NCBI GenBank assembly: GCA_964596525.1 | Contig: CAZQUL010000001.1 | Location: 1,079,723-1,143,722 of the forward strand | Reading direction: 5' to 3' | Length of the DNA: 64,000 nt | Origin: an uncultured Gammaproteobacteria bacterium | GTDB lineage: Bacteria > Patescibacteriota > Patescibacteriia > Magasanikbacterales > GWA2-37-8 | Shown here: one piece after another, positions 4,524 through 54,644 of the stretch | Position numbering within the stretch: position 1 is the stretch's first letter | How the letters are laid out: every line of letters begins with the position of its first letter | Position numbers and translations under genes: made by a program | The notes under the pieces: model-generated | The model's input: the letters and a program-made list of their open reading frames with translations, nothing else | Told to the model about the DNA's origin: nothing | Databases searched by the model: none

Positions 4524-4636
4524 GTCATTGCGAGGAGCGAGGTACGAGTGATGAAGCAATCCCCTTGATAACAGAGCGGGCTCTGAAGTACGGAGGGACT
4601 GCTTCGTCCTTCGCTACGCTTCGTCCTCGCAATGAC
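4524..4636. repeat. Copy 1 of nested-palindrome MITE-like repeat (GTCATTGCGAGGA...GACGAAGCAATCCCCTTGAT...TCCTCGCAATGAC)
   Basis: Outer inverted termini gtcattgcgagga / tcctcgcaatgac, inner inverted pair gacgaagcaatcccc / gggactgcttcgtc. Same architecture at 37814, 52695 and 54507. Confidence 0.7.
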
Positions 4637-4675
4637 AGATGTTTCTCAGCTTAACATGGGAAATATCGATTGAAA

Positions 4676-4706
4676 AGAAAAACCCCGGTTAAGGGGTCTT
4701 TTTTGG
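4676..4706 (-). terminator. Rho-independent terminator downstream of the 488-aa gene
   Basis: On the minus strand: accccttaaccggggt hairpin followed by a T-tract. Confidence 0.5.
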
Positions 4707-4711
4707 CTTTT

Positions 4712-6178
4712 CTACTGGGTTTTATCGAAATCAGCGGCAGCGAGCTCCAGGGCTTTATGCTTATCCTGGCACTTCTTGGCCTGCTCAATGAGGCGATAAG
4801 ACTCCCGCCGAAGCACACCCGCGCAATCGCGCAGAAGACCGGGCAAGAGCGGGGCAAAGACCGGCAGAGGGTTCATAATCCTGCCCATCGCAACACCCTG
4901 CTTACCGTCGATGTCAGCGACGACAAAGGCTTCGAGCGCCTCGTCGGTCTTTTTATTGCACCGCCAGTACAGGGTGAGACGGACCTTCGTGGCGTCGGGA
5001 TGCCACCACCGGTTTAGGCTGCGCAAGCTATCGCGCGGAAACGCGTCATCTCCGTTGTAGCCGAACGGATATGCGACCAGGAACTCGGCGCCCTCCAGAT
5101 GAGGCTGTTCATCCGGGTCGACAGCACCGACGCGGATGGAATCCATCTTCAGGTTCTTAAACGGTGCCTGCGCCATGCCAAAGCGACGCTTACGCAGGAG
5201 CTTGCGGATCGCCGGGTGCGTATCGGGGTTATCGATGGTCTGATCCAGGCTTTCGACCGATATACGGCTCGCGAAGCGGTCGTAGTCGTCGTAATGGATG
5301 TTGCGTGCAGTGCACAGCCAGGGAAAGAGATAGCGCTGATTATTTGCCCGCGCCAAGAGTGCTTTTTCCTCTAGCCGACGGACGATTTCAAAGGAAACAT
5401 CGGGGTTACGGATAATGTCTCCCACTGCCACCGCCTCGTGCGCTCCTGCGCTCGAAAAATAGTCAATCAAGGCTTCAATCTGCTGCGGATCGAACTTGGA
5501 CTCAGCCAGATCAATGCACCAGATATTTTCCAGCAGAGACCGAAAAGGTCCGGCTCCGGAAAAATCCCCTTGTATCCTATGCTGGCGTGAAGGACGGCCG
5601 TGTTCCATGGAAAGATTGAGGGTCGAAAGCTTGGCATTGACGAAGTTGAGTCCGCGCAATAACTTATGCCGCGGCGTTTCGTCGAGCACGACTCTCTCAC
5701 CGGAAAGGAGGATCTGACAGACCAGATCAGCCGACGTACAATTTACCGTGCTGTTGAAAGAAGGCGGACCATTATCTTGGAAATCCACTGGCGCAATAAG
5801 AATCGGCTGGTGGAAACCGAGCTTAAGCATGATGCTTTGGGCAAAGCGTTCCTTTTCCGGATGGCGAACGTTACGGGACGTAAAAACGCTCAACTCCGCG
5901 ACACCATGATCGAGGTCCTCAATCTGGGAACGGCCCTTGGACCAGGTTGCGGGGAAGAACCGCGGCAGTAAACGAACGAGCGAGTGAAGAGCTTGGTATG
6001 CATCCATAACCACACCTTCCTTCTGGTTGGCAACGAACGAACTGAACCTTTTGAGTATTCCTTGCGTGTAGTGCAAGGAATAGGATGTTATAAACAAAGA
6101 CGCATCAAAAGTCAAGAATGTGTTCATGAGAATGATAAAACCCCTTGGCAGGGGTTGGGTTGTTGGCGTGACTAGCAC
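4712..6178 (-). CDS. Hypothetical protein with central pentapeptide-repeat-like region (488 aa), paralog of upstream gene
   Basis: Segment GLNFVNAKLSTLNLSMEHGRPSRQHRIQGDFSGAGPF has A(D/N)LxxxL periodicity. Clear paralogy to 6172..7575 (e.g. LNRWWHPDATKVRLTLYW vs AERWWNYDLNNARLELYW). Confidence 0.5.
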   Translation of the reverse strand: MLVTPTTQPLPRGFIILMNTFLTFDASLFITSYSLHYTQGILKRFSSFVANQKEGVVMDAYQALHSLVRLLPRFFPATWSKGRSQIEDLDHGVAELSVFTSRNVRHPEKERFAQSIMLKLGFHQPILIAPVDFQDNGPPSFNSTVNCTSADLVCQILLSGERVVLDETPRHKLLRGLNFVNAKLSTLNLSMEHGRPSRQHRIQGDFSGAGPFRSLLENIWCIDLAESKFDPQQIEALIDYFSSAGAHEAVAVGDIIRNPDVSFEIVRRLEEKALLARANNQRYLFPWLCTARNIHYDDYDRFASRISVESLDQTIDNPDTHPAIRKLLRKRRFGMAQAPFKNLKMDSIRVGAVDPDEQPHLEGAEFLVAYPFGYNGDDAFPRDSLRSLNRWWHPDATKVRLTLYWRCNKKTDEALEAFVVADIDGKQGVAMGRIMNPLPVFAPLLPGLLRDCAGVLRRESYRLIEQAKKCQDKHKALELAAADFDKTQ

Positions 6179-7575: not shown

Positions 7576-7651
7576 CGCTTTATACCCAGAATAACCAAAA
7601 AAGTCAAGCTCAACGAGCCGACAAGACAGGTTAGGTAGGCGACATGGTCTT

Positions 7652-8725
7652 TTAATCCACTACCTGATGGATGATGTCGAGCACGACATGCTCTTCAATC
7701 TTCGGCAACATGCCGTGGAATTTTTCTCCCATCTGGCGTCGGCGCTCAGGATTATTCATGAGCTCCCGGACTTCACGGGAAAGACGCGGGCCGCCATCAA
7801 GTCCTTCGTGGAGCTCTAATAGCGCCCCGGATACGGAGAAAAAGCGTACGTTAGCTTCTTGGTGTGTCCCGGGCATAGGTATGATGACAGCAGCTTTTCT
7901 GAGGCTTGCCAGCTCACCGAGCGTACCAAAACCAGCGCGAGCGACCACCACATCGGCCAGGCTATACGCTAAAGCCATTTCATCGGTGAAAAATTTGTAC
8001 ACGTGATAATTGGGGAATGCTTTAGCGGCACGCTCTTCCAAATCGCCTGGGCGTTCTTTGCCGGTGAGGTGGATGATGTGCCAGTCGCGCGGCCAACTCG
8101 CGATAGCTTCGAGAATCATGCGGTTAACCGTTATGGAACCGGTACCACCACCGAGCGCAAAGACAACCGGTGCATCCGGCGGAATACCAAAAAACGCGGC
8201 TGCCTTGGTACGATCAGCAGCTTCAAGCACGCGGACTGGATTGCCGGTCCACACAGTCTTCTTACGCGGAAAATGATGCGCTGTGGCTTCGAGCGCTGTA
8301 GTAACTTTTCGGGCTACGGGCACCATGAGTTTGACGGCGAAACCCGGAATAACGTCTTGCTGGTGGATCCACGAGGGAATACCCAGAAGCGCTCCGGCCC
8401 AATGCAAAGGTACGCTTACGTACCCGCCGGCCGAAATGAGAAGATCCGGCCGCTCGTGGAGTAAAAACAGAATGGACTGGAAAAACGCCACGATGATACG
8501 GAAGATATCGAGAAAATTAGTCCACGAAAAATACCGGCGCCACTTCCCTGCCCCGATGGCAAAGAAGGGAACGCCGGCTTTTTCGACGATTTCGCGCTCT
8601 GGTCCCTGTTTCGTTCCTACCCAAGCAAAGGTGGTGTCGGGCAGATGTTTAACTATGACACGGCGCAGCTCGAGAAGCGGGGTTACTGGGCCGAGCGTAC
8701 CACCACCGGAGAAAACGATTTTCAT
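7652..8725 (-). CDS. murG: MurG-like GT28 glycosyltransferase (UDP-GlcNAc:undecaprenyl-PP-MurNAc-pentapeptide GlcNAc transferase)
   Basis: N-terminus MKIVFSGGGTLGPVTPLL (glycine-rich G-loop) and a GT-B fold C-terminal half (GGGTGS...) at MurG-typical length. Confidence 0.7.
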   Translation of the reverse strand: MKIVFSGGGTLGPVTPLLELRRVIVKHLPDTTFAWVGTKQGPEREIVEKAGVPFFAIGAGKWRRYFSWTNFLDIFRIIVAFFQSILFLLHERPDLLISAGGYVSVPLHWAGALLGIPSWIHQQDVIPGFAVKLMVPVARKVTTALEATAHHFPRKKTVWTGNPVRVLEAADRTKAAAFFGIPPDAPVVFALGGGTGSITVNRMILEAIASWPRDWHIIHLTGKERPGDLEERAAKAFPNYHVYKFFTDEMALAYSLADVVVARAGFGTLGELASLRKAAVIIPMPGTHQEANVRFFSVSGALLELHEGLDGGPRLSREVRELMNNPERRRQMGEKFHGMLPKIEEHVVLDIIHQVVD

Positions 8726-25911: not shown

Positions 25912-26325
25912 TTATTTAGTAAGGTCTTCTTCAACATACTTCTCACCAGTTGAAGTCAACACCCAGGCCTTTTTAGTATCTTTTTTCTCAGGCGCCTCCA
26001 TTATTAGACCTCGTGCGATGTTTTTGTTAACAGCATCGTTCACATTCTTAGGGCGCGGCTCTTTCGCCGCCTGGAATACAGCCACTAAATCATCAACGTT
26101 AAACGATGTCATCCCCCCTACTCGCTCGAGGTAGTAGCAAAGCGCAAGAGTTTTTTGCGTCTCGGAATTAAGTTTTTTGGTCAAGAGAAACTCCCGGGCG
26201 GAAAATTTTTTTTGAACCATTGAGCTAACAGCCGGACTACTTGATGGATTTTGCAAAAAAACCACTCCTTCAAGTTTTGCAACGCGATTCTCTAATTCAG
26301 CAAAACGTTCTTCAGAGATAGTCAT
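25912..26325 (-). CDS. Small low-GC protein (137 aa), paralog of 25496..25903
   Basis: Same architecture as the neighbouring gene. Confidence 0.4.
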   Translation of the reverse strand: MTISEERFAELENRVAKLEGVVFLQNPSSSPAVSSMVQKKFSAREFLLTKKLNSETQKTLALCYYLERVGGMTSFNVDDLVAVFQAAKEPRPKNVNDAVNKNIARGLIMEAPEKKDTKKAWVLTSTGEKYVEEDLTK

Positions 26326-26330
26326 AAAAA

Positions 26331-26735
26331 TTATTTTAGGTTAATTTTAAACTGCGAAATCAGCTCCGGAATCCGATAGGGAGGGACAAGGTACCGACCA
26401 TCTTTGTCCTGGTTAATTTTATGTTGGCTCCCCAGTATTCTAAGGCTTGATTTCACTGAACCTGCGGCCATTACTCCCATAGCGATGAGCTCGCTCGGTA
26501 GGAGACCATCTGGTTTATTAAGGTAGAGGGCGCGCGCTTTTGCAGCACACAAAATAATCTCAATTTTTTGATTATTGCCATCAATACTTGCAAACGACGA
26601 CAGAAAACCAAACTCCCCAGAAGACTCGTCAATAGAGATGAACGGCCTGACAAGATCAGCGAGTTGCTGACGATCTACAGCCCTTGCATCCTTCACAAAC
26701 AGTGAAGATAATGGATCTTTTTGGATATCTTGCAT
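26331..26735 (-). CDS. Low-GC hypothetical protein (134 aa), first gene of islet
   Basis: No recognisable motif. Tightly packed with the following genes (5-9 nt gaps). Confidence 0.4.
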   Translation of the reverse strand: MQDIQKDPLSSLFVKDARAVDRQQLADLVRPFISIDESSGEFGFLSSFASIDGNNQKIEIILCAAKARALYLNKPDGLLPSELIAMGVMAAGSVKSSLRILGSQHKINQDKDGRYLVPPYRIPELISQFKINLK

Positions 26736-26761
26736 ATTTTGCTAATTTAATATTAAACTGA

Positions 26762-26778
26762 CTATCTCTAGAGGATAG
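26762..26778. promoter_or_regulatory. Composite palindrome ctatc-tctagag-gatag upstream of the islet's first gene (operator candidate)
   Basis: Seen directly. Sits ~30 nt upstream of start codon 26735 on the minus strand. Confidence 0.25.
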
Positions 26779-26788
26779 CATATAGATT

Positions 26789-26883
26789 TTTTCTGTCAAC
26801 ACCAATTTGTGCGCATGGCAGTTGTTGCACGGAAGCCATCTTACTGCTCTCGAACGAACTGAAAATGAGCGTCGGACTCATAG
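26789..26883. repeat. Copy A of a ~93-bp perfect direct repeat
   Basis: tctgtcaacaccaatttgtgcgcatggcagttgttgcacggaagccatcttactgctctcgaacgaactgaaaatgagcgtcggactcatag repeated identically at 27208-27302. Confidence 0.8.
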
Positions 26884-27207
26884 AAGGGACGAAAATCCCT
26901 ATTTTCACTTATATTTTAGCCAAATAATACTAGTAATTTATATTTAAATAAGATTCTAAGATACATCTATCCCTATTTAATAGCTTAAAATATCTTAATT
27001 TAAAATTGATTTATTAGTGGAAAATAATAAAAATTACTTAAATTAAGATTAATAATAAGTAATATTTTCTTATATTAAAAAGGTTTATATGACTAATTAT
27101 CATTTTATATTTATATTATTTAGCTAATTTATAGATATATAATGTTATTTAATATATAATTGATAATATTATTATGAACCATAAATAGATAAAAATGAAT
27201 ATTATTC

Positions 27208-27302
27208 TTTTCTGTCAACACCAATTTGTGCGCATGGCAGTTGTTGCACGGAAGCCATCTTACTGCTCTCGAACGAACTGAAAATGAGCGTCGGACTCAT
27301 AG
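27208..27302. repeat. Copy B of the ~93-bp direct repeat
   Basis: Identical to copy A. The two copies bracket a ~325 bp spacer of >80 % A+T (26884-27207). Confidence 0.8.
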
Positions 27303-27310
27303 TCTAAATT

Positions 27311-27340
27311 AAAAACCTAGATAAAAATCTAGGTTTTAAT
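27311..27340. terminator. Perfect hairpin terminator
   Basis: aaaacctagataaaaatctaggtttt, followed by gcccctttttt at 27345-27360. Confidence 0.45.
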
Positions 27341-27417
27341 AAGTATTACGCCCCTTTTTTCTTTGACGATCAATTTTACCTCCTACCCCCACCACCCGGT
27401 AAATGAAACCTCACCCT

Positions 27418-27831
27418 TTACTTCCCCACCGGCGGCTCCCACAACTCCACTTTATTCCCCTCCGGATCCATCACCCACCCAAACTTCCCGTATTCCGACT
27501 CATCGACCTTGTCGAGCACATTGCACCCCTCAGCCCGGAGTGCAGCAAGCAGAGCGTGCAAATCCGCGACGCGGTAATTCACCATGAACGGCGCCGTGCT
27601 TGGCTCAAAATAGTTCGTGTCGGCGTCGTTGATATTCCAGGCCGTCGTGCCCGCCGTCGGCTTGCCCTCGGCATCGACCCAATCAAACGCCGCGCCGCCC
27701 CAGCTCTGCACGTCGATACCGAGATGCTCTTTGTACCAGGCGCGGAGCTTTGCCGGGTCTTTGGCTTTAAAAAAGATGCCGCCGATGCCGGTGACACGTT
27801 TTAAAGGGGCTTTTTCGGATGAGGAATCCAT
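27418..27831 (-). CDS. VOC/glyoxalase-family protein
   Basis: VTGIGGIFFKAKDPAKLRAWYKEHLG...VELWEP. Confidence 0.55.
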   Translation of the reverse strand: MDSSSEKAPLKRVTGIGGIFFKAKDPAKLRAWYKEHLGIDVQSWGGAAFDWVDAEGKPTAGTTAWNINDADTNYFEPSTAPFMVNYRVADLHALLAALRAEGCNVLDKVDESEYGKFGWVMDPEGNKVELWEPPVGK

Positions 27832-27950
27832 AGAATCTTGAACACAGTAATTAAAATCTCCGTAAACACTGCCACGAGCATACGATAATTACCACTTGAT
27901 TTCAAGAAAAATCAAGCTTTGCCTCGTATAAATATTATTGATAAGCAATA

Positions 27951-29123
27951 TTACTTAAAATCCGCCGTAACGGCAATACCAAAAAGATCATGAAGTTTTT
28001 TCGGATTATGCGTCAATCGATACCCATCTATATTGGCGCGATTCATGACGAGATGGTTACCAAAAAACTTCATATACCCATCCATGCCGACGCCGTAGAG
28101 TACGCTGAACCCAGCGTCAAGAAGCAGCTTTCGGCGCGGATCATCCTCGGAGAAAACTTGCCCGAACGGACCGATGAAAATATTCGTGCGACCTACGAGA
28201 GGCTCAACCTCTTTGGCCCAGCGATCAATATCATTCGCCAAAAAATCGGCAGTGATTGTTCCCCGTAAAAATACTTGGTTGTGACTGTAGCTATGACTGG
28301 CAAACGTCCACCCGGATTTTTCGAGTGCTGCCACGACCGGCGCGACGTCTTTCCGTTCGCTGTCTCCTCGCTCCCCTTTTAGGTTGGTGCGATATCCCAA
28401 GATGCCTTCAAACCCCGTAAGGGCGATGATGCCCTTGGCGCCGTTGAACGAAAAATCCGGATGGTCTTTCACGAACGAATCCACGATCGGCATGACGTCG
28501 CCATCGTCCGTAACCACGGTTTTTCCTTCGGGCGTGATTACTTCGGTTTTTACTATATCGTCTTCTACGACTAATCTACGGGCAAAACCGCCGTTTTTCA
28601 TGTACGAATAATAGCTCACGTCGTCAATCGACAGGATGAGCGGCCGCTTGCCTTTGGGCAGGCGTAAAACATTCCGCTGCATCTTCCCTTTTTCATCGAA
28701 CGAAAACAGAAGGTTCGTATCGATAAGAACAAACCCATGCGCATAAAGCTGCTCGAGTATCTGCTTAAATTGCAGAACCGTCACCATGTTATCTTTATAA
28801 CCCGCAATGTTTTTCGCGTCCGCTAATGCTTTTTCAGGGTAGATGATCAGGCTATGAAAGAAAATATGGCGGACGGGGCCGGTGTAGTCTTCTAGATCCT
28901 CGACATGCACATCGGGTGCAGAGGTAGGCGTTGTTGTGGCAACAACTTCTTTCGGCGGATCTGCCACAACTGGATGTTCAACCGCTATTGTGGTGTCGGT
29001 TTTCTCGTACACGATACTCGATGGTCGATTGTTAACTGAAGAAAAATAGCCCAAAGCAATCAGCACGGCAGCACCCGACATGACAAACGCAAAGGCAGGT
29101 ACAGCTATGCGTTGAATGTTCAT
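27951..29123 (-). CDS. Membrane-anchored polysaccharide deacetylase (NodB homology domain)
   Basis: N-terminal TM, LILSIDDV...HSYSHNQ motifs. Confidence 0.55.
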   Translation of the reverse strand: MNIQRIAVPAFAFVMSGAAVLIALGYFSSVNNRPSSIVYEKTDTTIAVEHPVVADPPKEVVATTTPTSAPDVHVEDLEDYTGPVRHIFFHSLIIYPEKALADAKNIAGYKDNMVTVLQFKQILEQLYAHGFVLIDTNLLFSFDEKGKMQRNVLRLPKGKRPLILSIDDVSYYSYMKNGGFARRLVVEDDIVKTEVITPEGKTVVTDDGDVMPIVDSFVKDHPDFSFNGAKGIIALTGFEGILGYRTNLKGERGDSERKDVAPVVAALEKSGWTFASHSYSHNQVFLRGTITADFLANDIDRWAKEVEPLVGRTNIFIGPFGQVFSEDDPRRKLLLDAGFSVLYGVGMDGYMKFFGNHLVMNRANIDGYRLTHNPKKLHDLFGIAVTADFK

Positions 29124-29125
29124 AC

Positions 29126-29515
29126 TTATTTCAATCTTTCTAATACGCCTTTTCGCTTGACGATATTTTTATAATCCCACTGAATCTTCTCTGCCTTTCT
29201 AAGCCAGCGTTTCAGATCTGGCACATTGATATCGTGTACATCGTTATAAAATACCGAAGCATCCATGAATTTTTCTCCTCGCACATCTAATTTTTCTTCA
29301 TCAAAACCCTTCCCACTCCAAAACATCAACCGAATGCCGCGCTTCTCTTTGCTGTAGCCGACGATGGGGTTGCCGTCCAAAAACCACACCGGATGCTTGT
29401 GCCACACCTTACTCTCCGCGCCTTTCAGGCTCTCATTGATAAGTTCCATCAGCTGCTCGCAGATAGCGCGCTCCGATTTGGTTAACGAAGCATTATAAGC
29501 CTGTAATTCTTTCAT
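29126..29515 (-). CDS. DUF1801/YdeI-like domain protein
   Basis: WHKHPVWFLDGNPIVGYSKEKRGIRLMFWSGKGF pattern. Confidence 0.45.
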   Translation of the reverse strand: MKELQAYNASLTKSERAICEQLMELINESLKGAESKVWHKHPVWFLDGNPIVGYSKEKRGIRLMFWSGKGFDEEKLDVRGEKFMDASVFYNDVHDINVPDLKRWLRKAEKIQWDYKNIVKRKGVLERLK

Positions 29516-29523
29516 AAAAAAAC

Positions 29524-30090
29524 TTATTTTGAGACCGGAGCGTAACGGAGCATCACGCCGCCCGTCGCGAGCGGACGCGCTTCAAGCAACGTGAGCTTCT
29601 GGTAATTCAATCCCTCATTGAAAAGCCGCCTCCCTTTGCCCAGCACGACTGGCGCCACGACGAGCCTATACTCATCAAACAGATTGGCATTCATGAGCGA
29701 CTCCGAGAGCATGCCGCTTCCGAATACGAACATGTTTCCACCACCCTCCTGTTTCAATTTCCGAATTTCGGCAAGTGCATCGCGTACGATCGTCGTATTG
29801 TTCCAGTCGGCACGCTCCAAGCTCGCCGAACACACGATCTTTTTTATCGCGTTCATGCTTTTGGCGGTTGTGCCTTCCGCGGCATCACCTTCGGCTTTGG
29901 ACCAATAGTCGGCCATGCCAGTGTAGGTATTCTTGCCAAAGACCAGCATGTCCGCCGAAGCGAGCTGCTCGTGGCTAAAATCTTCCAGTTCTTTGCCCCA
30001 CACGAGCTCGTGGAAGGAAAGATCCCAGGGTTTTTCTCCCTCGAAGCATCCGTCGAGAGTAATAACGTTCCACATGATGAGGTTTCGCAT
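29524..30090 (-). CDS. Dihydrofolate reductase-family protein (RibD C-terminal domain type)
   Basis: MWNVITLDGCFEG...MFVFGSG...LVVAPVVLGKGRRLF. Start taken at MRNLIMW. Confidence 0.6.
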   Translation of the reverse strand: MRNLIMWNVITLDGCFEGEKPWDLSFHELVWGKELEDFSHEQLASADMLVFGKNTYTGMADYWSKAEGDAAEGTTAKSMNAIKKIVCSASLERADWNNTTIVRDALAEIRKLKQEGGGNMFVFGSGMLSESLMNANLFDEYRLVVAPVVLGKGRRLFNEGLNYQKLTLLEARPLATGGVMLRYAPVSK

Positions 30091-30142
30091 AGGGTTTATC
30101 TGCAAATATAGTAATTCACCAACCAGAGAAACGGTATATGCC

Positions 30143-30613
30143 TTAAAGGCGCGCAGCCTGAACAAGTGCTGCCTCGAGCTTATCCGGTTCATCGGTACCG
30201 ATGCGATAGATCTTACCGTTTTTCATGGTAAGCTCAAGCGCATCCAGGCCAGACACGCTGAAAATCCGCATTTTCTTGGGCCAGAACCACAGCTTTATGC
30301 CCCAGCCGTAGTACCATTTATTTCGTACTTTTTTAACGGTCGCTATGTCGCTGAGGGGAAATGTTGTGCGATAGATCCCCCAGCCAAAACGGATCTTCAA
30401 AACCTGCTCATCGACAGCTACGGTGAGCGTCGAAAAAGACGCAAGGACAATGAGAATGAATGTCATGAGGGCGGAGACGGCGAAGTTGACGCCGGAATCG
30501 TACGAAACCGGCTCGGTTCGGGCGGTGATTTGGAGCCAAGCGAAGAGTGCCAGAACGAGGAAGGTTATGAAGATGAGGAGGTAGCCGATTTGGGTGTGTT
30601 TGTAGGAGGGCAT
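30143..30613 (-). CDS. Membrane protein with bacterial PH-like (bPH_2/YdbS-type) domain
   Basis: Two TM helices then a beta-rich ~80-aa domain. Start taken at MPSYKHTQIGYLL to avoid overlap. Confidence 0.4.
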   Translation of the reverse strand: MPSYKHTQIGYLLIFITFLVLALFAWLQITARTEPVSYDSGVNFAVSALMTFILIVLASFSTLTVAVDEQVLKIRFGWGIYRTTFPLSDIATVKKVRNKWYYGWGIKLWFWPKKMRIFSVSGLDALELTMKNGKIYRIGTDEPDKLEAALVQAARL

Positions 30614-30620
30614 ATAGTAG

Positions 30621-31676
30621 TTATCTTTTTTCAAGAATAGCGGCAATTTCATTTAGAAGTGTGTCTAAATTCGCTTGAAAGCTTATTTGTGTTTTTGTTA
30701 CTGCTAAAACTTTTTTACTTATTTGCGTATGGAGATAATCATCGCCTATTTTTTTTGCAGTTTCATTTAAGGGTCGCGCTATATCTTTGAAACTTTTAGT
30801 ACCATACTGAGCACAGACTTCCGCAAAACTTGTCTTTTGAAAAACTGGTGGTATATGATCAAGAATCGCGCGTTGCAACATCGCACAAGAATGATAGTTT
30901 TCCAAACTATAATTGTCATCCAGTTCATTGCAGAGAGCGATCAATCTGGTCAAGTCAAATTCCTTACTATCTATTCTACTGAGACGTAAAAGTGTGTACT
31001 TATCAATATAAGCAACTCTACCATCAGGTTGGCCTTTGAATTCCTGTTCTGCGCTTTTACTTTGAGCAAATATCTTATCAATGAGAAACAAAAAATCGTT
31101 CAACTGCTCTGTAGCACCTGCCATGAATAAGGCTGTGGCATCATAATATTTATGGGTAGGAATTATTATTCCAGCACTCATTGCATCACTATCCCTTGTC
31201 ATTATTTGCCTCTTCCAATACTGATTAAAAATATCAAGTTTTGTTTGTAGATTGAATTTTTCTATCTCCACCGCTGCATCTTTCGAAATGCTTGAAAATA
31301 AAATTATTGTCTGTTTTCTTAATTTCTCGAAGTGATCTACGATTAAATCAGCCTCTTTGTCTAAGTCTTCCGGTAAGATGCCGGAATCATTTTTAATTTT
31401 TTGTAGAACTTCTTCATCACTTTTTTCATACCATCCTTCTGGAATCCCGTGGATAAGCCCCCACTCAATACTGAATCGTTTGTTATACGGTGGTGTGTCA
31501 AAGTTTCCATAAAAGAAATGACAATGTCCAGCCAAATCCGATCCGCTCCATGAGTTATTGATCAAATTACATACTGCGGCGATCTTTTTTGCTGACTCTG
31601 CGGATCTAATAAGTCGATCTAGAAGATCCTTAACTCCGTTCTTAATTTTTTCAATTTCTTCTCCCATGCTATTCAT
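30621..31676 (-). CDS. Low-GC hypothetical protein (351 aa) with C-terminal HEPN-like Rx4H motif (LQRAILDHIP); Abi-like candidate
   Basis: AT-rich codon usage unlike the flanks. Rx4-6H motif seen directly; family assignment is inference. Confidence 0.4.
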   Translation of the reverse strand: MNSMGEEIEKIKNGVKDLLDRLIRSAESAKKIAAVCNLINNSWSGSDLAGHCHFFYGNFDTPPYNKRFSIEWGLIHGIPEGWYEKSDEEVLQKIKNDSGILPEDLDKEADLIVDHFEKLRKQTIILFSSISKDAAVEIEKFNLQTKLDIFNQYWKRQIMTRDSDAMSAGIIIPTHKYYDATALFMAGATEQLNDFLFLIDKIFAQSKSAEQEFKGQPDGRVAYIDKYTLLRLSRIDSKEFDLTRLIALCNELDDNYSLENYHSCAMLQRAILDHIPPVFQKTSFAEVCAQYGTKSFKDIARPLNETAKKIGDDYLHTQISKKVLAVTKTQISFQANLDTLLNEIAAILEKR

Positions 31677-31783
31677 ATTATTTCCAAAATCTTATTTTTT
31701 TCGATTCCACCCATTCAATAAATTTCAATCGTATCGGGCAATTATTCATTGTAATTGTGTAAATCGCAATTTCTTGTATAAAT

Positions 31784-32221
31784 CTACCTCCAATTCAACC
31801 CTGTTATCACCACCTGCAACACCGTCGCAAACGCCACCCACAGCAGATACGGAATATTAGCGTAAACAATCCACGCATAGGTCGGTGCGCCGGTTTCAAT
31901 ATGGAGCTTGAGACCAAACGAATACAAACCAACGAGCGCCCACACGAGCGTCGCAAGAACCAGCACGATATCTACCGAAGCGAGCAGGTTATTCTTGAGC
32001 CCAAACTGGAGCGGCGTAAAAGCGGCATTAAACACCAGATTGAGCGCAAACGGCAGCACCACTACCCACGGAATACGCCGGGTGAACGCGTGATAAAAGA
32101 CCATCCCAAACGTTACGGCGATAATCGCGTAGAGCACCGTCCACACCGGCCCAAACAGCCAACTCGGCGGCGCCCAGCTTGGTTTGATAAGCGTTTGATA
32201 CCAGGCGTAGGTTTCGTTCAT
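31784..32221 (-). CDS. tspO: TspO/MBR-family tryptophan-rich sensory protein
   Basis: WYQTLIKPSWAPPSWLFGPVWTVLYAIIAV, classical TspO N-terminus. Five TM helices. Confidence 0.7.
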   Translation of the reverse strand: MNETYAWYQTLIKPSWAPPSWLFGPVWTVLYAIIAVTFGMVFYHAFTRRIPWVVVLPFALNLVFNAAFTPLQFGLKNNLLASVDIVLVLATLVWALVGLYSFGLKLHIETGAPTYAWIVYANIPYLLWVAFATVLQVVITGLNWR

Positions 32222-33048: not shown

Positions 33049-33227
33049 ACGGTTCGCTGCCCTACGAGCTTCGGTCTGGCGCCATCAAAGCCAGTCTAAC
33101 GAGCACGAAACAATAGCGGATTTATCTCGCTGTAACCTCGCCTTTGATTCTAAAAAGCAAAGAAAATCGAAGGCATTATATTAGGATTGCCCGCCTTCGC
33201 TCCTACGGAGCTACGGCGAGGTGAAAG

Positions 33228-33314
33228 CGGAGAGTGCGAGATTCGAACTCGCGAGGGCTTTTGGCCCTACACGCTTTCCAAGCGTGCGCACTAGACCAAC
33301 TATGCGAACTCTCC
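33228..33314 (-). tRNA. tRNA-Ser (anticodon GGA), no encoded CCA
   Basis: Minus-strand fold: acceptor GGAGAGT/ACTCTCC, D-arm GCAT-AGTTGGTCTA-GTGC, anticodon stem CACGC/GCGTG with loop TTGGAAA, long variable arm GGGC-CAAAA-GCCC, T-arm GCGAG-TTCGAAT-CTCGC. Confidence 0.8.
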
Positions 33315-37813: not shown

Positions 37814-37919
37814 TGTCATTGCGAGAAGTGAGGAACGAACGACGAAGCAATCCCCTTGATTACACTGTGAACTCTGAATTATGAAGGGATTACTTCGTCG
37901 ACTTCCTCCTCGCAATGAC
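37814..37919. repeat. Copy 2 of nested-palindrome MITE-like repeat
   Basis: gtcattgcgagaagtgagg...gacgaagcaatccccttgattacactg...gggattacttcgtcg...cctcctcgcaatgac. Confidence 0.7.
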
Positions 37920-37932
37920 TTTTAAGCAGGCT

Positions 37933-41956: not shown

Positions 41957-44900
41957 TTAGCTGACGAATTGATTCGCCTCTTCTTCGATAATTTGAGCGA
42001 TATTAAGCGGCGTGCCACGAGCGAGATCGGGTAATAAGCGGCGCATGCGTTCGCGGATATTTTTTTCCAAGTCCGGCCGGCGATACTCAGGAACGAAGGC
42101 TTTTACCGCTTCATCCTGGGCAATCATCTCTGGCAATTCGTTCCAAGCTTTAACCGCGGTATCGACCCAGGTATCGGTGGCTGCGAGCCCAAGCTCACCT
42201 ACTTCGCGAGAGCGGGCCAAATTTTTTACACGTGAAAGCAGATCAACGAGTTGTTTCTCGTACGCCGGGCGCTGCCAACCCATCTGAATATCTGCCTGCT
42301 GTATTTTAGTACCCGCTTCGACGAATATTCTCTTGGTCTCAGCTTTCTTTGTGGACAGACGGGCGCTGCGTTCCGCTTTACTTTTTTCTGTCTCAGCTTT
42401 ACCAGCTACTGCGGTTTCGGGAATGGCATTGATGATATTGATCATGAAGTCAATCTGTTCACGAAGCGCTTTCTTGAAACCTTTGATATCGGCAACCATT
42501 GCTTCTCTGGTTTCAAAGGATTCTTCGTATTTACGCTGCTCTCGGTCGCGCGTCATAAACTCCTCGCTACGCGGACGAAGATCGGCTTTACTTATTGCTT
42601 GAGCCCCACGCTCTGGAACCCCTTCCTTTTTCTGGCCGAACGACAAACCAGACGTAAGACGTTTATGCGCCACGCGCACCTCGGTTTCCAAGCGGGAAAC
42701 ATCGTCTTTAAATAAAGCTGGTTCAACTATCGAACCGTGCGTTCGTCCGGTTTCTATCGTATCTCTAAGCGCCTTTAAACGGTCGTAGAAATCAGCGCGT
42801 TCATACACCGCCTTTCCAAAAGCCGAGGACTCGAGCATACGTTCGATATCAACGCAACGCACTTTAAACGGCTCTATTTCCTGGTACACTTCGGCCATTT
42901 TTTTCTTACGGTATTCAAGGGCATCTTCGATTCGTTCCAGTATTGCCAATGCGGATTGAGGGTTGGGAGCAGTAGCTAGCTGCTCGGAATTAAAATCATA
43001 GAGCAGTGTGCTGTTTTTGAACACGTAATCTTTAGCAAGACGAAAATCCCGAATCAACGTATTGCTAGGATCACCCAAAAATCCGTACTCACGCCGCAGC
43101 TTGTAATTTTTCTCGTCGCTTAGACGCTCGAGCATTGTGCCCACCCGGCGCATGGCGGCAACCGCTTCGGCAGAGCGTTCCTCCGCTTCTTTACGCTGCT
43201 TCTCTTGGCGCGCCAGGTCCTCCTGGCGCTGATGCATGTCGGCCAAGGATCTTTCTGCCTGCTCACGCGTGCTGTAATATGCGCTAACGACTTTGGTTGT
43301 ACCCTCAAGGTATATCATATTGACGCCCGGGTACGCGAGAAGCGGGCGATCTTTAAAATCAATACCGAATTCCTGCGCTCGATGTGGCAACTTATCGATA
43401 GAATCCGGGGCAACAAAATCACGTAGGTTACCGAGCATTTCTGGGGCCGGTTTAGTCCAAGTCAGCCACATCTGTTCGCGCTCCGAGGCAAATAAGCGCT
43501 CCTGCATTTTTTCGAGTTCACCAGCTTCCCTAGTCAGGCTCGACTCATAATAACTACGGAAAGGACTTCTCTTCTGGTACACGTCGCATGATACCTGAAC
43601 GGTTGCCTGCTTTTCTGGCAATCCCAATTTCGGCAAATCCGCTTTTCTAAGTTTAAATAGGAATTCTTGGGACGGCAGGTTAATAACGGCCCGGTAGCCC
43701 CCCTGTGCGTCAAGGTAATAGTCTACACGGCACACTTCTCCCTTAAGAGGCACTTCGGTCGGGCAGTACTCACGAACCATGTCGAGCTGCTCTTCGGAAC
43801 AAATTTCATCCTTTGGCACAACAAGATCACGGCTATGCTTTTCAACTCCAGCAAGATCTTCAATGCCAAGCTCAGCCAATTTTTTACGATACCATTCCTC
43901 TAAATCGGGAACTTCTACAACTCCCCCGCTCAATTCTACAAACGGCTGCACTTCTTTGATAGCCTGATAGTTGTCGCGAATGAATCGCAGTGCTGGTTTT
44001 TTGTCCGCAATAAATGCACCTTCCCCGGCAGCAAACGTGCGAGCGAGCACTTCTCGCGCTTTTTCCTGCGGAAGTTCGCGCTTACGCTCGCCAACACGAA
44101 TGGCGGAGCGCTTAAGGAAGACCGGTACTTCTTCGACGACCGTGCCGGTTTCCCACGACAGATGCGGTTCGGTATTCCCACCATGAGCCCCCTGCCGCTC
44201 TTCGGTAAGATGCGGCACCATTTCGGCAATTAGTTCGCGGGGAACAGGATGAATCATACGGACATAAGCACGCGGCGCTTCACGGTCGTCTTCACGCCCT
44301 TGAGCGTCTTCTGGCGTATCGCTTATAAACAACTCGGGAGGAGAACCCGCACCTTCTGACGACGAGGAAATCAAAATGGACTTATGTTCAGCACCACCAA
44401 CACGAACATACCGGGCCACACGACCACGTCCATAGCTATCCGCCCCCCGATACGCCAAACGATCGGCATGGCTCGCGAGAAGTGCTCGTGTAAGATTTTC
44501 GAGTTTTTCTTCGCCCGGAGTTTTGGGTTTTTTATTTTCAAAACGAGTTATGCCCCCTACATCACGCGGTTCTTCTTCGTCCTCATCGTTATACCCTGCC
44601 TTATCGTCTGGGAATACATCATCAAGGCGCTTTCTCATCGCTTCCCAATCGAAATCAAGCTTTTCACGCTCCCCGGCAGCAATTTTTGTTTCTGCGGCTT
44701 TAAGGGCATCCGGCGCGTATTTCATGAAGTCTTGCAGACGCGCCGCGGCATGCAGCATGGCTTCGCATTTTACGTAGCGCTGGCGGCACCAGTTTTCAAA
44801 CGACCGTCGAGCGTACATACCCGAGGGCGAGCGGTCGGTCCGCAGCGCTTCCGCCAAACCGTTTTCAAGCGCGACTTTAAACAGTTTGAGGAGTTTGAAG

Positions 44901-46600
44901 TAATCGGAATTGCCGACTTTAAAGCATTCTTGCGCTTTGGCTACCTGTTTACGCGCTGCTTCGATTTTTTCTTTTTTATCCCGCCCGGGCGCTACCGCGA
45001 TATCCGCATCGCTTGGCCCGACAAAAAGACGGTCTTCGCGCATAAAAGCCGCCAAGGCTAAGGCTTCTTCCAAACACTTATGCCGTTCTCCTTCCAAAAC
45101 CAAAAGGGCGGTATGAGGTTCAAAATGATCGAGCTTCATCATTTCTACGCCGCGAGCGGTAGTACGATCGGCTTCGTCAATTGCCCCCAGCAGACGGAGT
45201 TCCTGTTCGCCACGCGCAATACTGCCTTGTTCTGGCGGATGACGGAAATAAAAACTCTTCGGATCGCGGCCCATGGCCCTAATCTTTAAAATAGGATGCG
45301 CAAGATTGGCATGAAGTATTTCCGGTTCAGGAAATTCCGGCAAACGATCGTACACCTCTTTGGGTTCGATACAATAGTAAGCGCCCTCTGCCGTGCGACC
45401 GCTCCGACCTGCGCGCTGTTTGGCCTGCATGCGGGAAATAAAGGTAGTGCCTTTGTGCACCATCCCGTCATGCGAATCAAAGCGCGCCGAGCGTTCACGG
45501 AGCGTATCGACCACATGACGAATACCTGGGCGTGTAATGGATGTTTCCGCGACGTTCGTAGCCACGACGATGCTGCGCCGATCATGCCGGGTACTGCTTA
45601 AACCCAAAGCATATGCGCGTTCGGCCGGACTCATTTGGCCATGCAGGCCGAGGATTTCAAAATCGGACACGTGCTTAAGGCGGTTCGTGACATAGCGAAT
45701 TTCGGATGGACCGGGAACAAAGACTAACGTATCGCCTTCTTTAGTATCGTGCACCACCTGGCTCACAAGATTAACCGTGCGGTCGAGGTAATTGCGTCCG
45801 TATTCGGGTCGGGCAGGGTCGAATTCGGCCTGCGCTTCGGGATCGGCGAAATGTTCGGTAATACGATGCTTACGTCCCTCGATGGAGAAAAAGCGTTCCT
45901 TTCCTACACCGAAAAACTGTCCGGTCTGCTCTTTATCCATAGTCGCGCTCATCATAAGTGCCAGAGGCAGCTCATTCTTTGCGCGCAGTTCTTTGGCAAT
46001 GCCGAGCACAAGGTCATAATCGAGGCTCGCTTGATGCACTTCGTCGATGATAATGCCGCCGATTTCACGGGGATTGATGTACCCGCTTTTCAGGTAGCGC
46101 AAAAAAATGCCCGGCGTTACGACGCTGATTTTACTGAAAGGCTTTACCATGTTCGCCTCTGCCGTGGAATACCCCACATCTTTGCCAAACGGTACGCCCA
46201 TCACGGCTGCCACGTTTTCGCTCGACTGGCGCGCGGCATCTTTGCGCGGCTGCATGACGATGATTTTCTCCGGTCGTTTCAAATCACGCAAGGCGTTCAT
46301 CATGGCCACCGGACCATAAATTGATTTACCCACACCCGTTTCACCTTCCAAAAGAAGCACACCATCGGTCTCAGCCGCAGCGGTAAGGGCACGGGCTACG
46401 TCGGGCATTTTTTCGGCCATCGGCAGGCGCTGCTCTTCGATGCGCGCTTTGAGCGCTCGCTGGCGTTCGGGCACGGAGAAATACTCGTACTCCCGCCGTT
46501 CTTCGCCAGGCTCAACATTTTCGTCAGAATTTTCACCACCGTAGTCCTGTCCTTCGGCGCGGGTAGCCGGACGACGATGAGTAAAAAAAGATTCAGCCAT
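41957..46600 (-). CDS. Giant DEAH-box (HrpA-like) ATP-dependent helicase with ~900-aa C-terminal extension (1547 aa)
   Basis: EGETGVGKS (Walker A), IIDEVHQAS (DEVH box), and helicase-C motifs TNVAETSIT, QRAGRSGR. C-terminal two-thirds is coiled-coil-rich with no recognisable domain. Confidence 0.7.
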   Translation of the reverse strand: MAESFFTHRRPATRAEGQDYGGENSDENVEPGEERREYEYFSVPERQRALKARIEEQRLPMAEKMPDVARALTAAAETDGVLLLEGETGVGKSIYGPVAMMNALRDLKRPEKIIVMQPRKDAARQSSENVAAVMGVPFGKDVGYSTAEANMVKPFSKISVVTPGIFLRYLKSGYINPREIGGIIIDEVHQASLDYDLVLGIAKELRAKNELPLALMMSATMDKEQTGQFFGVGKERFFSIEGRKHRITEHFADPEAQAEFDPARPEYGRNYLDRTVNLVSQVVHDTKEGDTLVFVPGPSEIRYVTNRLKHVSDFEILGLHGQMSPAERAYALGLSSTRHDRRSIVVATNVAETSITRPGIRHVVDTLRERSARFDSHDGMVHKGTTFISRMQAKQRAGRSGRTAEGAYYCIEPKEVYDRLPEFPEPEILHANLAHPILKIRAMGRDPKSFYFRHPPEQGSIARGEQELRLLGAIDEADRTTARGVEMMKLDHFEPHTALLVLEGERHKCLEEALALAAFMREDRLFVGPSDADIAVAPGRDKKEKIEAARKQVAKAQECFKVGNSDYFKLLKLFKVALENGLAEALRTDRSPSGMYARRSFENWCRQRYVKCEAMLHAAARLQDFMKYAPDALKAAETKIAAGEREKLDFDWEAMRKRLDDVFPDDKAGYNDEDEEEPRDVGGITRFENKKPKTPGEEKLENLTRALLASHADRLAYRGADSYGRGRVARYVRVGGAEHKSILISSSSEGAGSPPELFISDTPEDAQGREDDREAPRAYVRMIHPVPRELIAEMVPHLTEERQGAHGGNTEPHLSWETGTVVEEVPVFLKRSAIRVGERKRELPQEKAREVLARTFAAGEGAFIADKKPALRFIRDNYQAIKEVQPFVELSGGVVEVPDLEEWYRKKLAELGIEDLAGVEKHSRDLVVPKDEICSEEQLDMVREYCPTEVPLKGEVCRVDYYLDAQGGYRAVINLPSQEFLFKLRKADLPKLGLPEKQATVQVSCDVYQKRSPFRSYYESSLTREAGELEKMQERLFASEREQMWLTWTKPAPEMLGNLRDFVAPDSIDKLPHRAQEFGIDFKDRPLLAYPGVNMIYLEGTTKVVSAYYSTREQAERSLADMHQRQEDLARQEKQRKEAEERSAEAVAAMRRVGTMLERLSDEKNYKLRREYGFLGDPSNTLIRDFRLAKDYVFKNSTLLYDFNSEQLATAPNPQSALAILERIEDALEYRKKKMAEVYQEIEPFKVRCVDIERMLESSAFGKAVYERADFYDRLKALRDTIETGRTHGSIVEPALFKDDVSRLETEVRVAHKRLTSGLSFGQKKEGVPERGAQAISKADLRPRSEEFMTRDREQRKYEESFETREAMVADIKGFKKALREQIDFMINIINAIPETAVAGKAETEKSKAERSARLSTKKAETKRIFVEAGTKIQQADIQMGWQRPAYEKQLVDLLSRVKNLARSREVGELGLAATDTWVDTAVKAWNELPEMIAQDEAVKAFVPEYRRPDLEKNIRERMRRLLPDLARGTPLNIAQIIEEEANQFVS

Positions 46601-52619: not shown

Positions 52620-52694
52620 ATGGAGGTAGTATGCCACAGAGAACGAAGAAGAGGTAGTAGAGAAGGTAGCGCCCAACGCTACTTCCCGAATAAC

Positions 52695-52831
52695 GTCATT
52701 GCGAGTTGCGAGTTAGACGAGCGACGAAGCAATCCCTTCGTAATTCAGCGCTCACTCTGGTATCAGGGGGATTGCCCGCCCGGCACGCCTTTGCTGCCAT
52801 GGCGGACAGGCTTCGCTACGCTCGCAATGAC
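52695..52831. repeat. Copy 3 of nested-palindrome repeat (long variant with internal GC-rich hairpin insert)
   Basis: gtcattgcgagttgcgag...gacgaagcaatccc...gggggattgcccgcccggcacgcctttgctgccatggcggacaggcttcg...ctcgcaatgac. Confidence 0.7.
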
Positions 52832-52841
52832 AGGAAGTTCT

Positions 52842-54320
52842 TTAGAGTAATTTTTCCAAAGCAAGCCTTAGGCGACGTACGCTTTCCTCTTTTCCAAGCG
52901 CCAACGCGATTTCGAATGGTCCCGGCGAATTCTGTTGACCCGAAAGCGCGATGCGCAACGGGGAGAGCACAGCGCCGTTACTAAGCGCCTTTTCCTGGAC
53001 GAAAGCTGCGATGATTTTTTCGAGTTCCGGCTTAGACCACTCACTCTCCCCTACCGACCCGAGCTTATCGACAAGGTTTTCGAGCACCATGCGCGCCTCT
53101 TCGGGAGTTCCTTTGCGCCATACCAGCAGCTCTTTCTCGTACGCCGGCAATTCAAAACAAAACGCGATCGCCCCCGGCAACTCACCAAGCGTCGTAATAC
53201 GGTCTTTTTCAAGAGCCACACAAGCCACGGTTTTCTCCCACGAAGCCGTCGTCGGCAAACCATAATCCACCGCTCGGCGCGCCACTTCTTCGGCACTCAT
53301 TTTTTTAAGGTATTCCTTGTTAAACCAGTTGAGTTTTTCGATATTAAACACCGAACCAGCTTTACTCACCTTTTCCAAACTGAATTCTTTGATGAGCTCG
53401 TCGAGCGAAAAAATCTCACGGTCGTCACCGGGATTCCAGCCAAGAAACGCAACAAAGTTAAGAAGCGCTTCGGGCAAGTAGCCTTTTTTGCGGTAATCTT
53501 CTACCGCCACATCGCCCTGGCGTTTGCTGAGTTTGGATTTATCAGGGTTGAGAATGAGGCCGAGATGCCCAAACTCAGGCGCCTGCCAGCCAAAGTATTC
53601 GTAGAGCTTGAGGTGTTTGGGAGTGCTCGAAATCCACTCTTCACCGCGGACAACATGAGTGATGTGCATGAGATGGTCGTCTACCACAACCGCAAAATGA
53701 TACGTCGGAAAACCGTCGGATTTGATGAGCACTTGGTCATCGATGAGGCGGTTATTAAACCGGATTTCTCCGCGGATAAGATCGTTAAACACTGTTTCAC
53801 CGGTCTGATCCATCTTCATGCGGATGACATACGGTGTTTGTTCTTTGAGCTTCGCTTCCACGTCGGCAGGCACAAGGCTCAAACATAAGCGGTCATAACT
53901 CGTTGCTTGCTTATTGGCTTCTTGACGCTTGCGGAGTTCTTCGAGGCGCTCGGACGTGCAGAAACAATAATAAGCCGTGCCGTTAGCGAGCAAGGTTTTG
54001 ATATGTTCATGGTAAATCGGCAAGCGCTCGGATTGAATGTATGAATCCGGTCCGCCTTTTTGACTTACTTTATATTCGCCGCGGGCCAACGCCTCTTCGT
54101 CAAGACACACGCCTTCATCGGGACGGATACCGGCCCAGTACATGGCTTTGAGCAAATTAAGCGTCGCATCGGCCACAAAGCGCTCGCGGTCAGTGTCTTC
54201 GATACGGAGTAAAAATTGGCCATTATTCTGTTTGGCCAAGATGTACGAATAGAGCGCCATCTTAAGAGTGCCGATGTGCATGTAACCAGTGGGGCTCGGG
54301 GCGATGCGGGTGCGGAACAT
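52842..54320 (-). CDS. gltX: Glutamyl-tRNA synthetase
   Basis: RIAPSPTGYMHIGTLKMALYSY...LRIEDTD (HIGH) and KLSKRQG (KMSKS). Confidence 0.9.
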   Translation of the reverse strand: MFRTRIAPSPTGYMHIGTLKMALYSYILAKQNNGQFLLRIEDTDRERFVADATLNLLKAMYWAGIRPDEGVCLDEEALARGEYKVSQKGGPDSYIQSERLPIYHEHIKTLLANGTAYYCFCTSERLEELRKRQEANKQATSYDRLCLSLVPADVEAKLKEQTPYVIRMKMDQTGETVFNDLIRGEIRFNNRLIDDQVLIKSDGFPTYHFAVVVDDHLMHITHVVRGEEWISSTPKHLKLYEYFGWQAPEFGHLGLILNPDKSKLSKRQGDVAVEDYRKKGYLPEALLNFVAFLGWNPGDDREIFSLDELIKEFSLEKVSKAGSVFNIEKLNWFNKEYLKKMSAEEVARRAVDYGLPTTASWEKTVACVALEKDRITTLGELPGAIAFCFELPAYEKELLVWRKGTPEEARMVLENLVDKLGSVGESEWSKPELEKIIAAFVQEKALSNGAVLSPLRIALSGQQNSPGPFEIALALGKEESVRRLRLALEKLL

Positions 54321-54506
54321 ACGAGGAGCTTGTAGCTAGTTAGTTGGTAGCTTGCTAGGAGCAAGGTACCTAAAAGGTATGGTGATACTAGCAAATTAGC
54401 CGGTTTTTTCAAAGGTTAGGTTTGGATGGAGAGAAGTGAAGTGGCTTTTTAGCCCGTTAGCCGGTTAGGAACGTAGCTCGTTAGAAAGAAGACCCTCTTA
54501 AGCACT

Positions 54507-54644
54507 GTCATTGCGAGGAAGGAGTTAGATGACTGACGAAGCAATCCCCTTGATATCAAAGCGGGCTCTGAATTACGCAGGGATTGCCCGCCCGGCACGC
54601 CGTGCTGCCATGGCGGACGGGCTTCGTCGTGCCTCCTCGCAATA
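54507..54644. repeat. Copy 4 of nested-palindrome repeat (long variant)
   Basis: gtcattgcgaggaagg...gacgaagcaatccccttgatatcaaagcgggctctgaattacgcagggattgcccgcccggcacgccgtgctgccatggcggacgggcttcgtcgtgcctcctcgcaatag. Confidence 0.7.

Follow-up and report, generated by a model that had tools for sequence, protein, structure and literature searches.

Four similar palindromic sequences lie between genes in the 64,000-nucleotide stretch analysed here (contig CAZQUL010000001.1 of assembly GCA_964596525.1, positions 1,079,723 to 1,143,722 of the forward strand; hereafter the window), and they raise the question of what such repeats are and how they came to be there. A preliminary description, made from the sequence alone, had proposed a mobile miniature element similar to repetitive extragenic palindromic (REP) sequences or, alternatively, a structured small RNA family. 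The four copies, c1 to c4, are a real repeat family. They are probably non-autonomous REP- and REPIN-like dimers that belong to the superfamily of REPs with a CGTC tag, have an interrupted stem and act through single-stranded DNA.

Four inverted dimers in the window

In every copy, two units of one type, about 35–45 nt long, form an inverted dimer with the 5′ tags facing outward and a spacer, or core, between them. The copies range in size from 105 to 139 bp and are arranged as listed, together with the gene enclosed by the last two.

4524..4636, c1, inverted dimer: left unit 4523-4563 (+), spacer/core 4564-4594, right unit 4595-4637 (-)
37815..37919, c2, inverted dimer: left unit 37814-37854 (+), core 37855-37885, right unit 37886-37920 (-)
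52695..52831, c3, inverted dimer: left unit 52694-52736 (+), core 52737-52767, right unit broken by a GC-rich hairpin
54507..54645, c4, inverted dimer: left unit 54506-54548 (+), core 54549-54579, right unit with a GC-rich hairpin
52842..54320, minus strand, gltX (glutamyl-tRNA synthetase; Pfam tRNA-synt_1c and Anticodon_2), between c3 and c4 and not part of the element

These four intergenic sites are the ones given in the preliminary description, with the corrections that c2 starts at 37815 rather than 37814 and that c4, whose right terminus is degenerate (CTCGCAATAGC), ends at about 54645. The first copy lies 17 nt from the start of an NTP-transferase gene; on its other side, 75 nt away, an upstream gene of unknown function ends. 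The second sits between the convergent genes tsaE and rarA/mgsA. The two long copies do flank gltX, as had been claimed: 10 nt separate the stop of the gene from the end of c3, and on the other side c4 begins 186 nt before the gene starts, which places c4 upstream of the gltX promoter-like site as well.

The terminal 11-mer GTCATTGCGAG occurs 7 times in the window, while 1.3 occurrences are expected and none of 100 shuffles reaches 7. The inner 11-mer CGAAGCAATCC, with at most one mismatch allowed, occurs 8 times against an expectation of 1.9, and six of the eight occurrences fall inside the copies. An nhmmer profile of c1–c4 matches only the four copies themselves. The strongest check comes from a covariance model, R1 (35 positions), that was built from 30 units, all from other genomes. 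Run on the 64 kb with filters off, R1 matches six units at E-values of 9e-7 to 7e-10: the two units of c1 (7e-10 and 9e-7), the left and right units of c2 (1.5e-9 and 2.7e-7), and the left units of c3 (2.3e-8) and c4 (1.1e-9). The match to the right unit of c4 is partial (E 0.17), and this search of the window returns no other match. Beyond the window, the pattern GTCATTGCGAG-N10-30-GAAGCAATCC, which has 21 fixed bases, was searched for in a 596-Gb collection of species-representative genomes. It is found there in at least 120 stretches of bacterial genomes and, outside that collection, in at least 120 viral contigs, whereas by our own arithmetic about 6 stretches would be expected by chance in 596 Gb.

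Ordinary terminator-like palindromes, or a chance similarity with no family beyond the window, would fit the presence of only four copies in 64 kb, all of them intergenic. With motif counts far above those of shuffled sequence, a model from other genomes that recovers the copies, and the exact 21-base pattern so far in excess of expectation, the likelihood of this account is close to negligible. As for intrinsic terminators in particular, no copy is called as one and none carries a T-tract; separate terminator-like sites lie at 4678-4701 and 54708-54720, beside c1 and c4.

Anatomy of the unit and its place among known repeats

The anatomy of the unit was derived from about 400 units, with 210 distinct middle segments, in other genomes. 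The unit reads (C/T)GTC, ATTGC, GA, a variable middle, GAA, GCAAT and CC(A/C), which corresponds to an unpaired 5′ tag, a 5-bp stem, a purine internal loop (GA/GAA) that encloses a free second stem-loop, and an unpaired tail. The base before GTC is C in 282 of 406 units and T in 112, and the tail is CCA in 290 and CCC in 95; tag and tail go together, with CGTC paired with CCA in 255 units and TGTC with CCC in 74. In the window, the left-unit tag is CGTC in c1 and c3 and TGTC in c2 and c4. The window units carry the CCC tail, which is the variant paired with TGTC, and they thus fall in the CCC subgroup.

Of 443 fully paired matches, 418 have ATTGC...GCAAT as the first stem, as do the units of the window; this near invariance arises in part because the search pattern required it. 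Compensatory variants nevertheless exist: ATCGC/GCGAT in four units of the loci set and in the left unit of locus L122, and ATGGC/GCCAT and ACTGC/GCAGT once each. Unpaired single changes are also present. In L122 the variant left unit keeps its hairpin and is mismatched to its partner unit.

The middle segment, 4–50 nt long, takes three main forms: a 7-mer GC-NNN-GC (for example GCGAAGC, GCGCAGC or GCGTAGC), a hairpin set within G-GA and GA-C, or a plain hairpin of up to about 10 bp. The stems of this second hairpin comprise at least 79 different sequences, and covariation in the second helix is evident, as four of its five pairs change on both sides (35 cells), a result reached in none of 500 shuffles. 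The loops are mostly 3 nt long, and 58 of the 123 three-base loops are of the G-N-A type. Mini-hairpins of the d(GCGAAGC) type and tandem sheared G.A pairs are unusually stable in DNA, a property that standard nearest-neighbour energies miss. The RNA fold energy of GCGAAGC is 0.0, and GNA triloops receive no stabilisation from nearest-neighbour RNA parameters.

Dimers with outward tags hold 79% of the genomic units and 67% of the viral units. An entire dimer folds into a long hairpin whichever strand is taken, with z-scores of -4 to -9 and the two strands folding equally well; in the window, the values are -7.9 (RNA) and -5.7 (DNA) for c1 and -8.5 (RNA) and -8.6 (DNA) for c2. At locus L082, from a Chloroflexus metagenome-assembled genome, the two middle hairpins of one dimer are unrelated, and the unit is therefore a building block rather than a terminal repeat. 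The same contig contains a tandem array (L082:1530-2294) with periods of roughly 90–150 nt that runs to the contig end; it has one unit per period, all in the same orientation, and its clustering resembles that of arrays of bacterial interspersed mosaic elements.

The superfamily of CGTC-tagged REPs was defined by Di Nocera, De Gregorio and Rocco (2013, BMC Genomics 14:522; PMC3733652). Members of the superfamily carry CGTC, TGTC or CCTC as an unpaired tag, have AT at the start of the stem and CCA as the tail, and form mostly inverted dimers; occasional copies are intragenic, the range covers five phyla, mainly Alphaproteobacteria, and there is no dedicated transposase. Its four families, CGTC-1 to CGTC-4, have an uninterrupted GC-rich stem of 8–9 bp and a loop of 4–5 nt. 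The superfamily takes in Neisseria dRS3 (equated with CGTC-1) and the Rickettsia palindromic elements (RPEs) RPE-4 and RPE-6, and its authors state that REP classes with bulges may have escaped detection (PMC3733652).

The unit described here shares with this superfamily the unpaired CGTC or TGTC tag, the A-T/T-A start of the stem and a 3-nt tail (CCA or CCC). It also shares the inverted dimers with outward tags, a spacer of 20–100 nt that is sometimes conserved within a lineage, a position between genes with occasional in-frame copies inside them, the presence in several phyla and the lack of an associated transposase. Given its interrupted stem and mostly 3-nt loops, the unit is not one of the four described families, and its range, about 16 phylum-level groups including Patescibacteria, together with phages, is wider than the published one. 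The translated peptides ..ARND.., ..TKQS.. and ..LAMT.. are absent from the intragenic REP list of PMC3733652, and a full-text literature search for the DNA strings of the repeat and its translated peptides returned primers and noise only. The unit is an interrupted-stem variant of the CGTC superfamily that we found described nowhere, the comparison with PMC3733652 having covered the paper apart from its Figure 2.

Other known systems resemble the copies in part. As in the REPIN/RAYT system (Bertels and Rainey 2011; Nunvar 2010), two inverted REPs and a spacer replicate as one unit, single units resemble decay products, target duplication is absent and the mechanism proposed is one of single-stranded DNA hairpins. 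The tag, however, is CGTC or TGTC and not GTAG, and no repeat-flanked RAYT gene is known, nor was one found in the window or in the loci examined; moreover, REPIN-RAYT pairs are described as vertically inherited within lineages, whereas the interrupted-stem CGTC type occurs on phages, on plasmids and in many phyla. With the RPEs the elements share palindromy and the ability to sit in frame within genes, in this case a phage portal gene, but RPEs are defined in Rickettsia, the copies in the window are all intergenic, and the unit sequence differs. Two further candidates were rejected by eye: integron attC sites, as there are no R″/R′ GTTRRRY cores and gltX is a housekeeping gene, and kink-turns, as the purine loops do not fit the bulge-plus-tandem-GA geometry.

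Spread, gain and loss of the elements

Copies c1, c2 and c4 have a conserved spacer, which is inverted in c3. It is absent from the other loci examined (about 240 loci, about 2 Mb), and a metagenome scan with this window-specific spacer returned one partial match, L122, in another organism and no sister genomes. Since the spacer is both lineage-specific and common to the copies, whole dimers are shown to have multiplied within the source genome. This genome probably belongs to the Patescibacteria; the named relatives of its GltX, at 58–63% identity, are Magasanikbacteria or Patescibacteria. The copies in Bradyrhizobium have a common spacer of their own. The organism of the window has a fifth copy, located 5 kb outside the window on its left side, where a contig of the Logan assemblies ends. 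At L122:385-510, in the tuf-rpsJ spacer of a metagenome contig, we also observe a dimer that carries the start of the window spacer (CCCCTTGAT) in inverted orientation.

The extra GC-rich hairpin that the preliminary description had reported in the two long copies is genuine, and the inserts of c3 and c4 are 94% identical over 48 nt.

52776..52811, GC-rich hairpin of 36 nt inside the c3 right unit, between GATTGC and TTCG
54588..54622, GC-rich hairpin of 35 nt inside the c4 right unit, at the same point (GATTGC^TTCG)

This insert is absent from the other loci, about 240 in number. The c3 core (52737-52767) is the reverse complement of the core of c1, c2 and c4, with a minus-strand match of 53 nt at 85% to c1, and the GC insert of c3 keeps its side although the core is reversed. 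Judged by sequence comparison, this suggests that the c3 core flipped between the inner inverted repeats. As c3 and c4 are mutual closest relatives in both arms, an ancestor that already bore the insert, followed by the flip of one core, would be more economical than two insertions. Logan contigs from two samples terminate inside the c4 hairpin and one terminates at the edge of the c3 hairpin. Such breaks were considered as evidence of high copy number and set aside as ambiguous: c1 is spanned intact in the Logan assemblies, and the breaks fall in the GC hairpins of c4 and c3 and at the fifth copy.

Among the matches listed, the exact pattern spans about 16 phylum-level groups as judged by record titles, although many of the matches are metagenome bins, for which some mis-binning is possible. 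The groups include the Alpha-, Beta-, Gamma- and ‘Delta’-proteobacteria, Chloroflexota, Cyanobacteria (Nostoc, Gastranaerophilales), Bacteroidota, Ignavibacteria, Zixibacteria, Patescibacteria, Spirochaetes, Bacillota, Armatimonadetes, Gemmatimonadetes, Verrucomicrobia, Planctomycetes (Brocadiaceae), Moduliflexus and Electryonea. R1 matches the interrupted-stem type at E-values of 1e-7 to 1e-14. The element is present, unannotated, on megaplasmids of Novosphingobium, Methylosinus, Methylocystis, Halomonas and Legionella. In viral contigs it lies beside genes for the portal, large terminase, major head, tape-measure and adaptor proteins; in the phage collection of GenBank, the pattern is found in 3 records only. 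At many loci spurious long open reading frames (ORFs) run through the repeat, for example L163:5232-5690 and L028:3928-4176, and their recurring peptides (..RHCEERSDEAIQ.. and ..DCFASLAMT..) cluster like a protein family. Recognition of the family should avert the annotation of such small ORFs, as ..HCEERSDEAI.., ..LAMT and ..ARND.. are translations of the repeat, and helps to explain contig breaks.

Comparison of related genomes shows that the elements are gained and lost at orthologous sites and that they enter phage genomes and coding sequence in frame. The related phages compared are 75–99% identical. Dimers occupy two gene junctions of contig L143; at these junctions L163 and L186 show about 10 nt or an overlap of the stop and start codons. 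A 97-nt block comprising two units distinguishes L138 and L184, and L163 carries a collapsed remnant of the dimer in L151. In Bradyrhizobium, the pairs L044/L071 and L005/L055 exhibit filled and empty intergenic sites. Relatives with GltX proteins of 68–73% identity keep the order gltX, M23 peptidase, DAO; their gltX-M23 spacers are 37–56 nt long, and R1 finds no match in 8–21 kb of their sequence. Presence/absence variation, which the preliminary description had left as a matter to be checked, therefore exists in related phages, in Bradyrhizobium and at the gltX locus of distant relatives. The elements are REP-type inverted dimers dispersed in genomes, phages and plasmids, and the proposal of a REP-like mobile miniature element is borne out to this extent.

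In-frame copies are found at one site of the phage portal gene (phrog_64), in differing arrangements, in L241:645-2105, L203:330-1817 and L210:8167-9660. The insertion adds 24–35 residues to the protein (for example VIASEAKQSQ...APRND), and the orthologues L138:489-1877 and L184:6721-8109, at 76–83% protein identity, are without it. In a phage dense with single units, these all point the same way (11 of 11 in L154, 7 of 7 in L127), and whether that direction is sense or antisense to the genes depends on the phage. This arrangement argues against a role at the transcript level and would fit strand-specific insertion. In viral contigs L154, L127, L172, L165 and L210, a unit stands at almost every gene junction, and some units lie inside genes.

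These data bear on the possibility that the copies are functional RNA elements (stabilisers of mRNA 3′ ends, attenuators or a small RNA family) kept by selection rather than spread by mobility. The strong hairpins, the position of c3 just after the gltX stop and of c2 between convergent genes, and a covariation in the second stem that fits RNA as well as DNA would all accommodate such a function, and PMC3733652 argues that many REPs are transcribed. On the other hand, both strands fold equally well, the mostly GNA triloops gain nothing from nearest-neighbour RNA energies, neither a promoter nor a T-tract is called in any copy while canonical terminators stand separately beside c1 and c4, and c4 lies upstream of the gltX promoter-like site. 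A search of Rfam gives the same indication: in the window only the tRNA reaches its gathering score and nothing relevant appears at E-values up to 10, the sub-threshold matches being generic hairpins, mostly microRNA-precursor models, far below their gathering scores. Together with the orientation of the phage units, which varies relative to the genes as their positions do, and with the in-frame copies in the portal gene, these observations make a functional RNA unlikely, and the suggestion of a structured small RNA family finds no support.

The term MITE (miniature inverted-repeat transposable element), also used in the preliminary description, implies deletion derivatives of an insertion sequence that a DDE transposase moves by way of terminal inverted repeats, here GTCATTGCGAG...CTCGCAATGAC. 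Like classical MITEs such as the Correia elements of Neisseria, the copies are small, bear terminal inverted repeats, are dispersed between genes and fold into long hairpins. Classical MITEs, however, generate target-site duplications and have a parent insertion sequence with the same ends, and neither is seen here. Around 158 distinct dimers, whose flanks read YC|GTC...GAC|GR, direct repeats of 2–5 nt are as frequent as in the controls. The about 2 Mb of loci examined, which sample genomes in part, yielded neither a transposase gene bounded by these termini nor a parent insertion sequence carrying them. Single units with one ‘terminus’ are common, and a dimer may combine two unrelated middle hairpins (L082); the units are hairpins and not plain terminal inverted repeats. 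An origin as classical MITEs is thus highly unlikely.

A proposed mobilising enzyme and the surroundings of the copies

We favour the view that c1–c4 are non-autonomous CGTC-superfamily dimers that move through single-stranded DNA. On this model, the tagged hairpin would form on single-stranded DNA and would be mobilised in trans, by cut-and-paste or by copying, through an enzyme whose gene lies elsewhere, most likely an HUH/Y1-like or another single-strand-specific nuclease. Effects on neighbouring genes, such as protection of the mRNA 3′ end at c3, would then be secondary. The in-frame portal insertion and the strand-consistent orientation in phages provide testable clues to such a mechanism.

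Several observations weigh against this view. The single unit has a standard nearest-neighbour energy of -1.6 to -2.7 kcal/mol, with z about 0; because this indicates no special stability, the case for folding of the unit is made by covariation and by the known stability of G.A pairs and GNA loops, and not by energy. The 5-bp stem, the GA/GAA internal loop and a second stem that is free in sequence and length all differ from CGTC-1 to CGTC-4. The copies of the source genome were counted within the 64 kb and about 10 kb more. Presence and absence were compared between fairly diverged genomes, so that loss is not always separable from gain, and no transposition event or excision product was seen in the genomes compared. 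Finally, no transposase, integrase or nuclease domain (Y1_Tnp and IS110-type included) was detected in the about 60 ORFs of the window, and no protein family recurs beside the elements when ORFs within 1–1.5 kb at the about 240 loci are clustered. The clusters obtained are spurious repeat ORFs, phage structural genes and local synteny only, and among ORFs lying between two elements, which were compared without a domain-library scan, none recurs beyond orthologous phage genes. A literature search (dRS3, RAYT, REPIN, Patescibacteria REPs) returned no newer work on a mobiliser of CGTC REPs.

Another account takes the repeats to be targets rather than mobile units, either attachment sites for integrating elements or boundaries of mosaic exchange in phages. 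Precedents are the use of Neisseria dRS3 by Nf prophages and of REPs by elements of the IS110 family. The phage loci with a unit at almost every gene junction would suit this account, as would the proximity of c4 to two atypically GC-rich genes and a Bradyrhizobium site at which the element in one species (L071:7540-7700) is matched by an unrelated GC-rich palindromic sequence in the other (L044:7590-7690). By eye the latter is a different type of repeat, which raises the possibility that certain spacers are repeat hot spots. The equation of dRS3 with CGTC-1, made in PMC3733652, points in the same direction. However, target sites would leave the multiplication of sites with a lineage-specific spacer unexplained, no integrase or IS110-type gene is present in the window or recurs beside the elements, and the GC-rich genes begin about 170 nt from c4 with a terminator-like hairpin in between. 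We therefore regard target sites as quite unlikely.

The kind of element, a CGTC REP, is known; the variant gains some value from its breadth, its presence in phages and in a minimal genome, and the missing enzyme. REP elements are among the commonest non-coding repeats of bacteria, and since 2013 it has been an open question which enzyme copies their CGTC half. Returning to mobile single-stranded dimers, we tentatively propose that the unit may be the recognition module of one enzyme, either acting on single-stranded DNA or very widely conserved, that spread this type of repeat through at least 16 phylum-level groups, the streamlined genomes of Patescibacteria, megaplasmids and phages, the last being likely carriers. 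If true, an abundant and easily modelled type of repeat would allow phylogenetic profiling to find the mobiliser of CGTC REPs. The source genome, a candidate-phyla-radiation genome of about 1.3 Mb, has few genes, and the host or mobile enzymes that come into question are correspondingly fewer.

The remaining features of the window that bear on the preliminary description are as follows.

33184..33222, GC-rich hairpin, unsupported as a member of the family, 3′ of tRNA-Ser(GGA) at 33227-33314 (-)
54817-55875 and 56245-57297, GC-rich genes, 68–79% GC in a 52% GC genome

The hairpin beside tRNA-Ser had been taken for a fragment of the element, which we could not confirm: the two have only a common 12-mer (BLAST E 0.4), and R1 gives an E-value of 4.7. 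A gapped alignment of this hairpin to c3 has a z of 3.8, a value equalled by 26 of 1693 other 72-nt windows. Similarly, the junction of c4 with an island of ~70% GC resolves into the two separate genes listed, with a spacer of normal GC between them, and the notion that c4 marks an island junction finds no support. Both products have signal-peptide-like N-termini; one is Cys-rich with a weak match to Dickkopf_N, and the other is Pro/Ala-rich without a Pfam match. By composition, the two genes look foreign or at least atypical.

The opposite bias is seen at 26000-32000, where GC falls to about 40–41% (26–28 kb and 30–32 kb) and many small ORFs have no Pfam match. This low-GC stretch may be an island, and tRNA-Ser lies about 1 kb past its right end. 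The window also contains very large ORFs at 57817-62802 and 41957-46600; one encodes 1661 aa without a Pfam match, and the other encodes 1547 aa with DEAD, Helicase_C and HA2 domains at its N-terminus only.

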